A DNA stretch of 64,000 nucleotides from Podarcis cretensis (lineage: Eukaryota), in contig OX638155.1 in assembly GCA_951804945.1 (NCBI GenBank), forward strand, positions 34,162,001-34,226,000, given 5' to 3'. Shown here one piece after another: positions 5,606-47,847 of the stretch. The position numbers were made by a program, and so were the translations under genes. Each line of letters starts with the position of its first letter. Within the stretch, counting starts at the first letter, position 1. The notes under the pieces were generated by a model that searched no databases, was not told where the DNA came from, and saw nothing but the letters and a program-made list of their open reading frames with translations.

Positions 5606-5818
5606 GAGATTATCTGAAGAACTGCCTGTACCCAGGTTTTAGGATTGGCCTTAGTGGTTCTGTTGATAAACCTGATGCCAAGAGCTATCAGACTGTTTGC
5701 CCTGACAGACAGGGCCATTGTTCAGTGGTCCCATCTTTTTAAAATTCTTTCCCCCAAAAAGTACATGTACCCCCGACCTTATTGGTTTGTAACCAAACCT
5801 TAAATCAAATGTGTTTTG

Positions 5819-6655
5819 TTTTTGTTTTTTTATAAATATTTATTAGGTTTTTCCAAATTAATACAAAACACAAACAAAAATAAAAAAAGAAAAACAAAAA
5901 TGCACAAAAAATAACAAAAATACAAAAAAAACAAAACAAATATAATTTTCATTACTTATTCCATTATCTTATTTCCTGGACCTCCCCTCACCTCCCCCTT
6001 TTGTATTCCAATTCAAATTCTTAACTCAACAAATCCATATTATAACTTATTATGACTTATTTTAACTTATTACTCGACCTTCACATTACAGCTGGAAACC
6101 AATTAATTTCTGTCCAACATCAATCTAACATTCATTAATTTTGCAATATTTCTGCAAATAGTCCTTAAATTTCTTCCAGTCTTCTTCCGCCGACTCTTTT
6201 TCCTGGTCTCGGATTCTGCCGGTCATTTCTGCCAGTCCCATGTAGTCAATCATCTTCATCTGCCATTCTTCCAGAGTGGGTAAATCTTGTGTCTTCCAAT
6301 ATTTTGCAATCAGTATTCTTGCTGCTGTTGTAGCATACATAAAAAAGGTTCTGTTTTTCTTTGGCACCAACTGGCCAACCATGCCCAGGAGAAAGGCCTC
6401 TGGTTTCTTCAAGAAGGTATATTTAAATACCTTTTTCATTTCATTATAGATCATTTCCCAGAAAGCCTTAATCCTTGGGCACGTCCACCAAAGGTGAAAG
6501 AATGTACCTTCAGTTTCTTTACATTTCCAACATTTATTATCAGGCAAATGATAGATTTTTGCAAGCTTGACTGGGGTCATGTACCACCTATACATCATTT
6601 TCATAATATTCTCTCTTAAGGCATTACATGCCGTAAATTTCAAACCGGTGGAAAA
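5819..6655 (-). mobile_element. 5'-truncated L1-clade LINE (ORF2 C-terminus with CCHC knuckle, 3'UTR, A-rich tail)
   Basis: Open frame contains CWKCKETEGTFFHLWWTC and ends at stop 6125; 13-bp TSD caaatgtgttttg at 5806-5818 and 6656-6668. Confidence 0.93.
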
Positions 6656-7074: not shown

Positions 7075-9021
7075 TACTATGGAGGTTGTGAGGTTGGGGA
7101 AGTCCACTTTGGATAAAATACACTTTAAGAGCCCTGCTGGACTTGCAAAGACCAGCACAGATNNNNNNNNNNNNNNNNNNNNNNNNNNNNNNNNNNNNNN
7201 NNNNNNNNNNNNNNNNNNNNNNNNNNNNNNNNNNNNNNNNNNNNNNNNNNNNNNNNNNNNNNNNNNNNNNNNNNNNNNNNNNNNNNNNNNNNNNNNNNNN
7301 NNNNNNNNNNNNNNNNNNNNNNNNNNNNNNNNNNNNNNNNNNAATTTCCCAAACAACTATGCTGTAGTTTCACCACTGTTCTGAGGGCATGTCCCACAAA
7401 CTGTCCCTGATACAACACCCAGAATGTCCCCTATTTGCCCTTACTACCCTGGGAGGTGTCCAGCCACTGACCTCCACCCTCCTAGGACACAGTCGACAAT
7501 ATCCAATGTCTCCCAGCTGTGCTTCCTGGAAACTTAGGACTGCTTAATAAGCAAACAATCTCTTTAAGCCATGCATATTAACTACATTTTAATCACCCAT
7601 ATCTATATTGTATTACCTTATTTCACATTAGTCTGCCATGCATTCTTCAGTCATTCAGGAAGGGCATTATGAGCAAGGTGTCAAAAAATCACAGACCTAT
7701 TATTTCTCCCTTTGCTTTTCCTGTCAAGTCAGAATGAATAATATGCAGCACAGTGGTAATTTTAGCACATTTTGAGATATAGCTTTGAAATTTTCCAGCA
7801 TTTTCAAAGAATGAATTTGCAAATGGTGATGTGTTGGCTTATTATTTATATTGATTTTTGATTGACTGATAGGCTTTTCTTTTAAGCCAATGCAACATGT
7901 GCTTGTTTTAATTTCTTGGGGAACCATTTGCTCTCACAGCAAGCAAAGTTATTTTCTAAATATTCATCCCTCTGGCAAGAAATTTTCATATGCCAGTAAT
8001 TAATCTGGGTGATTTGAATTGTTCCTGAAAATCTGTTCTGTATAAGCTGATTCCATGCTCATACACATACATTTTTACAGGAGACAAAATTCTGCAATGG
8101 AATGCATTTTGAATTCTGATTTCAGCCTAGCTAGCTATGACCTAGGAATGGTTATGTTCCCCATTACTTTTTAATGCTGACAAAATGCCTTGTTGTACAG
8201 CTGATTGTTAAATTAAATTATCTTTCAAAAGGGCTAGCCTTTTTGGCAGTTTATGGTTCAACTAGTTATGCTCCAAAGATGTGGTCAAGTCTGGGTCAGT
8301 TTGAACTCTCAATAAAGAGAGGCTTTTCACAAAGGGCAGGAAGATAATGTAGCCCACCTTTGAACTGAGCTGTCTTTCAGAGTGCCAAGAGATGTAACTT
8401 AATAACAGAATCCTGGAAAGCTGCAGTTATCAGTCCAACATATGAAGGAGGGAGGACTCGCTCCATTATTTCTGGATTGTAAAGGATAGACAGCAGATAA
8501 GTTGCAAACTGTCCTATTTCCAAGCTAGGAGATTCAGGATGAATTCCTGAAGATCGCTAACCTGGGATAGATGATTTCTTGAGATTAATTTGGCAACATA
8601 AAAGTATGGGATAAAAGGTAGCTGCTGGGATGTTCCCCCATGCACAGGAGAGATTCACAGTACCCAGCACTGCGCTTTAGGAATGTGAGTTGAGAAGCCC
8701 ATTGCTTTTAGGGTATAATAATTAATGTGACAGAATGCTTGGGGTGTTCTAAAGCGGGGGGTCATTAAGCTTTCTGAGCCTGTGGACACATTTGCAAACC
8801 AGAGGCACTTTCCATGACACCACACACAGATCACAACCTAGCACACCCCACAACTTACTGTACTGGCTACAACAAAATACTTTTCTTATGCCTAATTAAG
8901 TGCGGAAGAGGAAGAGGATCCTGTGAGCACTATGGAAGATCTCTGCAGATACCGTACATATGCACCCACATGCACCACCGTGATGACCCCTGTTCTAAGC
9001 AATATACAAGAAACGCATAAA

Positions 9022-9103
9022 AGCTTGTTTGGAGGTTTTAGCAGGGGAGCGCAGCTATCGTATACCCTTGACCGAAGAACAATACACTCCTTCTATCTGG
9101 GAT
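9022..9103 (-). pseudogene. RN7SK: 7SK snRNA retro-fragment (internal part, 3'-truncated, runs into gap)
   Basis: Reverse complement '...tcttcggtcaagggtatacgatagctgcgctcccctgctaaaacctccaaacaagct' closely matches the vertebrate 7SK segment TCTTCGGTCAAGGGTATACGAGTAGCTGCGCTCCCCTGCTAGAACCTCCAAACAAGCT (recalled, not searched). Confidence 0.92.
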
Positions 9104-9869
9104 NNNNNNNNNNNNNNNNNNNNNNNNNNNNNNNNNNNNNNNNNNNNNNNNNNNNNNNNNNNNNNNNNNNNNNNNNNNNNNNNNNNNNNNNNNNNNNNNN
9201 NNNNNNNNNNNNNNNNNNNNNNNNNNNNNNNNNNNNNNNNNNNNNCCAGCAATGGCTGAATTCCTCTGATCGGGAGGAATTTGCTTCGTGGAAATTAGGG
9301 TCTGGCCGCCACGGCGAAGGCAGGGACCCACCAAAAATCACAGGCGGGAGAAGCCTGTGAACATGGGATTCGGCTGGCACCTACTCACGGGGAAACCCGG
9401 TTTCGGGGATCCAGAGCGACGTGGGGTGAGTGGCGCGGTGCTTTGGATTGACTGCTTCTTTCACGGAGTGAAGCCGCATAGCTGTTGTCGGAGAGCGCTG
9501 ACTTTAATTATATGACAGAAAATATATATGACAGAAAATATGACAGTTAATTATATGACAGAAAATAGAGAAAGAGGGAAAGGAATTGCTGAAATAATTA
9601 ATAGAAGTGGAATACAAAAAGGGAGGCGAGAGGAGGTCGATGAAACGAGGGAATGAAAGATAGGGCATTGAAACGGTATGATGTATGTTTTTTAATTTTT
9701 TAAAGTTTTAATTTTTTATGTTTAGTTTAATGTGTTAATGTTGTGTTGTGCATTGTATACTGTATTGTATTGTATTGTATTTCTTTTGCCTTTTTTCTTT
9801 TTTTTCTTTTTTCTTTTTTTCTTCTTTTTTTTGTAAGATTTAAAAGTAATAAATATTATTAAAAAAAAA
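9025..9869 (+). mobile_element. Chimeric retro-insertion: antisense 7SK fragment + gap + L1 5'UTR-like segment + L1 3'UTR/polyA
   Basis: 17-bp TSD aagaaacgcataaaagc at 9008-9024 and 9870-9886; AATAAA and poly(A) at the 3' end; 3'UTR motif shared with the other L1 copies. Confidence 0.85.
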
Positions 9870-11611
9870 AAGAAACGCATAAAAGCAAATCTGAGTGTAC
9901 AAGAAATTGCCAACTGGGGAAAACAGTGGAGTTAAAAGCTCTGGTTTCAAGGTGGTTTCCAACAGCAGGTGCCATGGCTGCCAGCATCTGAACACTGACA
10001 GGATAGAGATGGAGCAGTAGGAAATTGTTGCTGCCTGGCATGTTTGATGCACCAAAACCTAGTAGGATATCAACCAAACAACCAAACAACCAATTATATG
10101 TAGCCTGCTCTTCATTAAAATAATATCTCCCCCTAAACCATTATAGATGTACCATCTTCATCCTTGTTTTATTTCCACTCTTAAGAGTCCAGGGTGACTA
10201 ACAATAAAAATACAACAGGTTTTGTACAAATTCCACAGAGTGATGGTCCTCAATTTATGCTCCAAAGCCTTGCTGGAAGAAGTCTGAAGCTGACTCCAAA
10301 ATACAAATTTTGTGTATGTGCGTGTGTGTTGTGGTGGGAAGTTCAATTCTGTTAGAAAATGTATAAACTACTTTATCAAAAAGTTCTCTAAGCAGTGTAC
10401 AAATAACTTGGGTGCCACCACAGAAAAGGGCCTACTCAGTGAGATCACTCCATCATATTCTGTTTGCTAGGAGGCACCTGGGGAATAAATGAAGAAAAAA
10501 ACAGAGGAACAGTGTACAACTTAAATTTAAAAAGGTGGCTTTGATCCAGATTTGTAGGGCAAACAAGGATCAGCAGTAAGGAATCACCACATTGGGGGGG
10601 GGGGGAGGGATGGGTCAGGGTTCCTGAAGTCTCTTACTGTAACGTCAGACTGCGATATGGAGTTACATCTGAACTGCCCCTGTGTGCAAGGAGAGATTTG
10701 AACAGCTGCGACTAACTTGTGTGGAAGTGAGAAATTCCATTATTGAACAATTAGGCACTGGGGAGGGCATTTTAACAACTCCATCCTATGCATGTTCTTT
10801 TGGGAGTACACCCTGCTGTGTTCAATGAGGTTTGTAGGTATACATATGATTGCAGCTTTAACATTATACAACAGCCTGGTGGGATTCAGACATCTTATTC
10901 TCCTGCTATTATCAAGAATGCAGCGCTAGTATATTTATAAGTACCTAGGGGTCCTTTACCTTTACTTTTTAAATCAGGGATGGGATTTTTGAAGGCAGCA
11001 TACAATGTTGTTTATCAATGGATCCATGCATGCTTTTGAAATGAATTTTCTTTCTAATTGGACACAAATCATTTGCACCATTATAGGTGGATTAAATGCC
11101 ATTAAGTTATTTTATTGTAAGTGTTGGGCACACCAGGAATTGTCTTCTAACCAAGATCCAATGTAGATGAATACTAAGTAATATTAATTTTAAATATTTA
11201 TATTTATATTATAATATGGATGTTCTAAATTAATACAGCAGCATTCTAAATTAATACAGCAAACCTGTTATCGCAAATGCAGTTCACATATTGAGAATCT
11301 GTCAGTTTCTACTATACAATGTGATGAAGTAGGGCATTTTCTAAATATAATTAAATAGTCAGATTTATCAACTTCAAAATAAGTTTAAAAAATAGGCTGC
11401 TAATCTTCATGTGTGTAATATATTGTTGACAGCTCTTTGGGAAGGCATATGCTTTTTGGGGGTTAAACATTAATGTAAATATTTCCTATGGTTACCTTGC
11501 ATACAGCTATAGACCACATCCATGCATATGTCAAACTGCCTGACTCACTTCCACTCCTAAGCAGATGACAAACTAGGTTCATGGTGATTGAAACCATTTG
11601 AAGACTTAGGG

Positions 11612-47293: not shown

Positions 47294-47847
47294 ATAGACT
47301 ACATGGAACTGGCAGAAATGACTGGCAGAATCCGAGACCTGGGAGAGGAAGTGGTGGAAGAGGACTGGAAGAAGTTTAAGAACTATCTGCAGAAACACTG
47401 TAAAGTGTACGAATGCTAAAATGATGTTGGATATGAAATAATACGGCATCAGTGGTACAGTGTTAAAAAATATGTAAAAAATGTAATAGAAAAAGGGTGA
47501 AAAAACAAGGTTATATTATGTCAAAGCAAACAATATGTTAAAGGTGTTTAATTATAAGGAGGAAAGATTGGAGGCATAATAGAAGTGATTACAATAACCA
47601 GAAATAAGTTTTGAAGAAGGGTAAGTATTTGCTGTATTTGATTGGACAAAGAGGAACACAAAAAAGGGAGGCGTGAGGAGGTCAAGAAACAAAGTTTTGT
47701 AAACATGAGTCTGAAAATTGGAGTTTTTGTTTTTAACTTTTTATTTTTTTCTTATTTTTTATTTGGTGTATTGTCTTTGCTGTTTTGTGTTGTTTTGATG
47801 TTTTCTTTTGTTTTTGGAAAAATAAATAAATATAATTTTTTAAAAAA
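47294..47847 (+). mobile_element. 5'-truncated L1-clade LINE
   Basis: 'IDYMELAEMTGRIRDLGEEVVEEDWKKFKNYLQKHCKVYEC*' plus 3'UTR; 16-bp TSD tgaaacctcatatgca. Confidence 0.93.

Follow-up and report, generated by a model that had tools for sequence, protein, structure and literature searches.

Antisense 7SK and a HAL1-like element within one target site duplication in Podarcis cretensis: probable twin priming on two separate RNAs

Here we describe an insertion at positions 9008-9886 of a 64,000-nucleotide (nt) stretch of the Podarcis cretensis genome (contig OX638155.1; hereafter the window, G000:C7:34162001-34226000 of the 1.5-Gb genome). A 3'-truncated antisense copy of 7SK RNA lies there head to head with parts of a long interspersed element (LINE), and a single target site duplication (TSD) encloses both. 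The best explanation, to which we assign a probability of roughly four in five, is one insertion by twin priming on two separate RNAs.

The sequence of steps and the acting enzyme that we infer are as follows. L1 ORF2 protein, acting in trans, would nick an A-rich site, and the RNA of a half-L1 element would be copied from its poly(A) nearly to its 5' end, giving the first complementary DNA (cDNA). A second nick, 17 nt off, would free a 3' end, 3 nt of which would anneal to a 7SK RNA in its single-stranded SL3 loop and prime synthesis in the direction of the 7SK 5' end. Joining of the two cDNAs, with a 1-nt overlap, would complete the insertion.

Anatomy of the insertion

The insertion consists of the following parts.

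9008..9024, plus strand: left TSD copy, 17 nt; starts with the A-rich endonuclease-like site AC/AAGA; final 3 nt shared with the 7SK copy
9022..9231, minus strand: 7SK retrocopy, nt 27-236; antisense to the LINE part; Rfam RF00100, 172.6 bits; 98.1% to the probable gene L111
9231..9505, plus strand: 5' end (~nt 5 to nt 295) of a ~2.15-kb, L1-derived, ORF1-only (HAL1-like) family; CpG-rich
9506..9544, plus strand: 39-nt filler at an internal deletion of ~1.6 kb; built from nested partial repeats of the immediately downstream sequence
9545..9869, plus strand: 3' untranslated region (UTR) of the same HAL1-like family; T-rich tract, AATAAA at 9848-9853, poly(A) at 9861-9869
9870..9886, plus strand: right TSD copy, 17 nt; exact repeat of the left copy; junction spanned by a contig of run X15

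The original prediction, made from the letters of the window, had placed a 17-bp TSD around the whole chimera. This duplication is exact (17 of 17 nt) and maximal, no extension being possible to the left or right, and the window contains no third copy of the 17-mer. It encloses the 7SK and LINE parts together; around either part alone, as two insertions with separate TSDs would have it, no duplication was found. The right copy lies 638 nt from the 7SK part, behind the poly(A), so the insertion differs from a plain tailless retropseudogene, in which the TSD directly flanks the truncated RNA copy.

The 7SK copy shows 4 mismatches in 210 positions (window 9231-9022) against L111, the probable 7SK gene of this genome (360 bits, a TATA-like box upstream, a T run and no poly(A)). 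As had been proposed, it lacks ~95 nt at the 3' end; 26 nt are missing at the 5' end. The 3' end of the copy (nt 236) coincides with the 5' border of the SL3 apical loop, which spans gene nt 235-245 in the Rfam structure line, and the lowest pairing within 7SK nt 191-280 is found at nt 231-240. The sharing of the last three bases of the left TSD with 7SK, also noticed beforehand, is real.

At its other end, the 7SK copy meets the element directly, head to head, with a 1-nt overlap at 9231. The window copy of the element begins within ~5 nt of the family 5' end (29 copies compared), breaks off near nt 295 and restarts near nt 1865, and its open reading frame (ORF) is entirely gone. The segment 9231-9505 is 14 nt shorter than in other family copies. 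The reported CpG richness of 9246-9503 was borne out, with 18 CpG and an observed/expected ratio of 0.86 vs 0.13 in both 2-kb flanks. The 1.6-kb deletion and its stuttered filler may stem either from template jumps in first-strand synthesis or from later break repair. The product has no predicted function and is an inert by-product; as for a host gene, five long ORFs of the window were searched against Pfam and matched no family.

Junctions and empty site

A run of 142 N interrupts the insertion in the window. The genome's own copy of the locus (L061) is free of N and matches the window at every called base of the stretch. Here, the run is replaced by 128 nt of further 7SK and 14 nt of element 5' end, and the minus-strand 7SK reaches its 172.6 bits in Rfam. 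An Rfam scan of the window gave no 7SK match, because the N run splits the 7SK sequence (a porB match with E 0.66 is due to chance). For the antisense 7SK originally assigned to 9022-9103, the identity, orientation and left limit hold, but the copy runs on to 9231. The guess that the gap conceals the missing 7SK 5' part came close, as it applies to 128 nt but not to the other 14, and the supposed separation of the two parts disappears, since the genome copy is continuous through it.

The empty site is present in a related organism. A 3.6-kb contig (run X3, record 32) aligns to 9870-10330 with 17 substitutions, and its loose end equals the left flank of the window (8980-9007) with one extra base. 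The repeat is found there once, and the 7SK and LINE parts are jointly absent. Moreover, a contig of run X15 (9846-10330) spans the tail, the TSD and the right flank with 0 differences.

The LINE partner

The two element pieces come from a single, abundant family, with 2961 and 6190 candidates on first look. Its copies are mostly ~2.1 kb long (1.6-4.4 kb among 12 measured), carry poly(A) and flanking repeats, and many of them contain one conserved ORF of ~248 amino acids, in which ~40 RRM residues are missing. The family ORF itself gave no Pfam match above the cut-off, no Atlas match and no direct homologue. It aligns at 28.5% with the ORF that lies ahead of the endonuclease/reverse transcriptase (RT) ORF in the element L140, and at 35% (E 7e-43) with P0004, which one source names an L1 RRM-domain protein. 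The RT of L140 matches human L1 ORF2p with E 7e-97, and ~115 nt of the family are 83-84% like the ORF2 end of autonomous elements whose RT matches the same human protein. The ORF1 of L140 had 20 matches, the six named ones all being Podarcis proteins; against PDB it gave nothing meaningful.

Because the conserved ORF1-like ORF aligns with both L140 ORF1 and P0004, and because the RT of L140 is of the L1 type, the partner is classed as an L1-derived, ORF1-only element, HAL1-like by the definition of these non-autonomous half-L1 elements (PMC5753468). Like HAL1, the family is L1-derived, measures ~2.15 kb, has one ORF related to L1 ORF1 and no RT, and shows poly(A) and TSDs. Unlike HAL1, it is a separate family found outside mammals, the RRM-region residues mentioned above are missing from its ORF, and the window copy has no ORF. 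The two pieces had originally been read as 5' and 3' UTR of an L1: the derivation from L1, the poly(A) and the sense orientation stand, but the source is a non-autonomous, ORF1-only family and not a standard L1.

Family copies are L091-L102, with older relatives in L103 and L150. Older fragments like the 3' end of the family, with 74-86% identity, lie in the window itself at 5815-6014, 47649-47760 and 60548-60758. A short non-autonomous subfamily with the deletion of the window copy was looked for and not found: the filler/deletion junction (9506-9544) returned only its own locus among the best 40 scored of 1787 candidates, a lower bound only.

Recurrence in the genome

Four 7SK searches gave 279, 3264, 69 and 305 candidates, 40 of which were scored in each, and 66 distinct loci remained after merging duplicates (L086, L087 and L132 into L085; an array on C8 into L160). 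These loci are the best-scoring, youngest part of ~300 candidates, and fractions of them are not genome-wide estimates. Fifteen, including the window insertion, are antisense chimeras, in which 7SK stands head to head with a LINE 3' part or a LINE-like tail within a single TSD of 13-23 nt (for L183, TSD and overlap were read separately and not by the script used for the others). Left outside this group were one probable chimera whose TSD has mismatches (L218) and one with 30 nt of AT-rich filler (L084). The remainder comprises 26 plain tailless copies, each in a TSD of its own, 11 copies carrying the 3' end, the gene, and 11 loci without a TSD of score at least 12. A LINE in sense behind 7SK was seen at none of the 66 loci, among them 11 copies that retain nt 249-331, when a library of eight LINE sequences was used.

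The chimeras differ in their partners. Five carry the HAL1-like family, with a complete 2.1-kb copy in L090, and six carry 3' parts of autonomous L1. Two end in short tails (AATAAA and poly(A)) with no library match. The last two are joined to apparently full-length LINEs of another lineage, 5.3 and 6.4 kb long, whose ORF2s are 25-28% like L1 RT and 35-37% like each other and whose tails consist of short repeats. These are L138 (G000:C7:26097300-26106800) and L143-L146 (G000:C8, 13.8-14.5 Mb), where antisense 7SK precedes two-ORF non-L1 LINEs and the TSD cores measure 13 nt; the C8 case sits in four duplicated blocks. Both LINEs may be RTEX-like, judged by a C-terminal motif.

It had been left open originally whether the window insertion was a one-off or a member of an amplified family. 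The genome instead shows recurrent, independent events and, among the scored candidates, no amplified chimera. We rejected a 7SK-headed short interspersed element: the L090 junction has no second copy among the best 40 of 3264 candidates, the deletion junction of the window is unique among the best 40 of 1787, and breakpoints, partners and sites vary among the 15 chimeras. The sole multi-copy chimera (L085-L087, L132) owes its copies to the duplication of a block at least 7-9 kb long, and we entered it as a single locus.

The chimeras L134 (G000:C16:36.23 Mb) and L103 (G000:C15:22.27 Mb) arose independently and differ in 7SK end and partner, yet their 16-nt TSDs are identical, because each landed at the corresponding position in its own copy of a single dispersed repeat. 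This position is likely to be an endonuclease hot spot.

Overall, we lean slightly towards the broader view that retrotransposition in this genome routinely captures 7SK at the second nick. About a quarter of the young 7SK copies would then be head-to-head LINE chimeras, whose partners would include autonomous L1, ORF1-only elements mobilised in trans and, from another lineage, full-length LINEs with terminal short tandem repeats. If this is true, twin priming on two RNAs would belong generally to target-primed reverse transcription, whatever the LINE lineage, and this genome would offer a natural sample big enough to separate it from inversion in cis. Should the two non-L1 cases hold, the mechanism would not be special to L1.

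Tests of the mechanism

The overlap between target and 7SK at their junction has a mean of 2.5 nt in the 15 chimeras and 2.3 nt in the plain tailless copies, with 0.68 nt expected; neither value was reached in any of 5000 simulations. The A-richer TSD end, taken as the mark of the endonuclease cut, lies on the LINE-tail side in 11 of the 14 chimeras computed (2 ties, 1 opposite). Among the 26 plain copies it lies on the 7SK side in 13 and on the far side in 8. The mean number of A in 4 nt is 2.5 in the chimeras vs 1.2 in the plain copies (p=0.0006). This suggests that plain copies arise more often at the first nick and chimeras at the second.

In 14 of the 15 chimeras, the 7SK part ends at nt 231-246, around the SL3 loop, which also speaks for the explanation. 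At its 5' end, 7SK starts beyond nt 5 in 6 of the 15 chimeras vs none of the 26 plain copies (p=0.001), a difference that trimming of the cDNA ends during their joining would produce. The LINE part of the window insertion and that of L090 start within ~5 nt of the family 5' end, with no sense 7SK in front of them, and a sense 7SK 3' piece ahead of the LINE is absent from all 15 chimeras. As to age, the 7SK part diverges by 1.9% from the gene and the element pieces by 0.9-2.9% from their nearest family copies. Judged by these divergences, the two parts are of similar age, which is consistent with both cDNAs having been made in one reaction by the LINE enzyme. The central proposal of the original prediction, namely that the second-strand nick primed synthesis on a different RNA in a single event, is thus upheld by the closed junction, the one TSD, the empty site, and 14 further loci with microhomology and a cut motif on the LINE side.

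Several points weigh against this explanation. The 3-nt overlap in the window is weak when taken alone (chance 0.056), and two of the 15 chimeras show no junction overlap. The cut site AC/AAGA is A-rich and is not the TT/AAAA consensus. The clustering of the 7SK ends around the SL3 loop is partly built in, as two queries favour copies reaching nt ~236; a neutral query also gave ends at 176-231. Moreover, 11 of the 66 loci stayed unsorted, and the LINE library behind the count of sense chimeras was small. Support at the level of reads exists at the right junction, from run X15, which is possibly the source of the assembly; the left junction and the 7SK/element junction are given by the assembly alone. 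The empty site was seen in one of four runs, with runs X19 and X1 lacking coverage of the junction, and it cannot tell one event from two that were close in time.

Comparison with known chimeras

Both the mechanism and the antisense 7SK/L1 layout have already been published. Doucet et al. (2015; PMC4476161) explained inverted, 3'-truncated U5, U1, U2 and U6/L1 chimeras by twin priming on a small nuclear RNA (snRNA), with the model in their Fig. 1. As in our case, the small RNA is truncated at the 3' end within a single-stranded loop and lies in opposite orientation, one TSD surrounds the chimera, the cut motif shows when read from the L1 side, and the junction has complementarity. Unlike in our case, 7SK is not involved, the name having 0 occurrences in their main text. 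Anole U6 chimeras with L1, L2 and RTEX were ascribed to template switching in the same paper.

Law and Burns (2026; PMC13174262) extended the model to 5S and tRNA, named 7SK as a chimera type and proposed twin priming for chimeras with an antisense bias. Their Table S3 gives four human 7SK/L1 loci with assigned TSDs; in three of them, 7SK (15-238, 10-235 and 12-238) is antisense and directly 5' of L1. The window copy (27-236) has nearly the same breakpoints and the same orientation. It differs from the human cases in its ORF1-only partner with an internal deletion, and the TSDs in this genome are longer and cleaner (13-23 vs 7-9 nt listed). At least 15 antisense 7SK/LINE loci in this genome stand against three listed for human, although the pipelines differ and the numbers are not strictly comparable. 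The original prediction had assumed that known snRNA/L1 chimeras are co-oriented. These two papers contradict this, and the claim to surprise falls with the premise. Chimeras of the U6 sense type have the small RNA co-oriented with L1, whereas 7SK is antisense here.

Noll et al. (2015; PMC5322556) attributed tailless 7SK copies, which lack poly(A) and are truncated at the 3' end in single-stranded regions, to internal priming. Tailless retropseudogenes in general have been reported for therians and anole (PMC5322556; see also PMC2912911 on tailless copies). Such copies have their own TSD and no LINE part. In the chimeras, the same region of 7SK serves at the other TSD end, away from the cut motif, and the 7SK copy is joined to a LINE. 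Insertions of two RNAs in opposite orientation also arise de novo in cells (PMC11702581).

We found no report of 7SK/LINE chimeras in lizards in the open-licence literature. What this genome adds is the high frequency, the half-L1 partner and the two non-L1 LINE partners. How the second end of a LINE insertion is resolved has so far been inferred mostly from a handful of human loci; here, many young and clean cases involve one RNA and one priming loop.

Alternative explanations

The half-L1 might have inserted normally, with 7SK, either as a free cDNA or by a later tailless insertion, being end-joined into its 5' junction instead of being primed at the target. Such cDNAs must be made often, since tailless 7SK copies ending at nt 230-250 are common (23 of the 26 with their own TSD). 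Besides, L081 holds a 7SK copy inside a LINE, and the filler at 9506-9544 points to repair-like activity at the locus. However, a captured cDNA should enter in both orientations, and 7SK is antisense in 15 of 15 chimeras. The 7SK part has no TSD of its own, its junction with the target shows as much microhomology as in target-primed tailless copies, and the similar age of the two parts fits poorly with a later arrival. We therefore consider capture during repair very unlikely.

Alternatively, 7SK or a fragment of it could have been ligated to, or read through in sense into, the half-L1 RNA, as in U6/L1, and the fusion then inverted by twin priming in cis on this one RNA. That ligation or template switching yields sense U6/L1 fusions is established, and one of the four human 7SK entries, in a locus containing SVA, is co-oriented with its L1 (PMC13174262). 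Furthermore, twin priming in cis yields the same pattern of TSD and microhomology. It predicts, however, that sense 7SK 3' sequence is kept ahead of the LINE and that un-inverted sense chimeras occur, and the counts for both are zero (15 chimeras; 66 loci, with the small library). The breakpoints of cis inversions are usually 1-10 nt apart (PMC11702581), whereas here at least 95 nt would have been lost nearly every time. That no sense 7SK 3' part is retained while the LINE reaches its own 5' end argues against a pre-joined RNA. Together with the position of the 7SK end opposite the cut motif and the lack of sense fusions, this favours two separate RNA templates, and we regard a pre-joined RNA as very unlikely.

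An assembly artefact, in which a mis-join over the N run brought an unrelated 7SK pseudogene beside the repeat, could be suspected from the N run between the two parts and from the internal junction being without read confirmation, but its probability is close to negligible given the continuous genome copy, the contiguous flanks with a single TSD copy in the relative, and the same layout at 14 other loci and at three human loci.

Further 7SK loci

In the C17 chimera L183 (G000:C17:9349507-9352607), 7SK stops at nt 204, and 22 nt are duplicated where 7SK meets the LINE, akin to the filler at 9506-9544. A tandem array on C8 (G000:C8:91432171-91584489, L160-L180), made mostly of 2.93-kb units, accounts for 29 of the 40 scored matches of one search. 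Its units hold diverged 7SK pieces, nt 107-307 and nt 95-231, in opposite orientations, and a related arrangement is found in L162 on C17. Also on C17, L066 (G000:C17:1294155-1297236) is a full-length polyadenylated 7SK retrocopy with a TSD, which lies ~230 nt from TTAGGG repeats.

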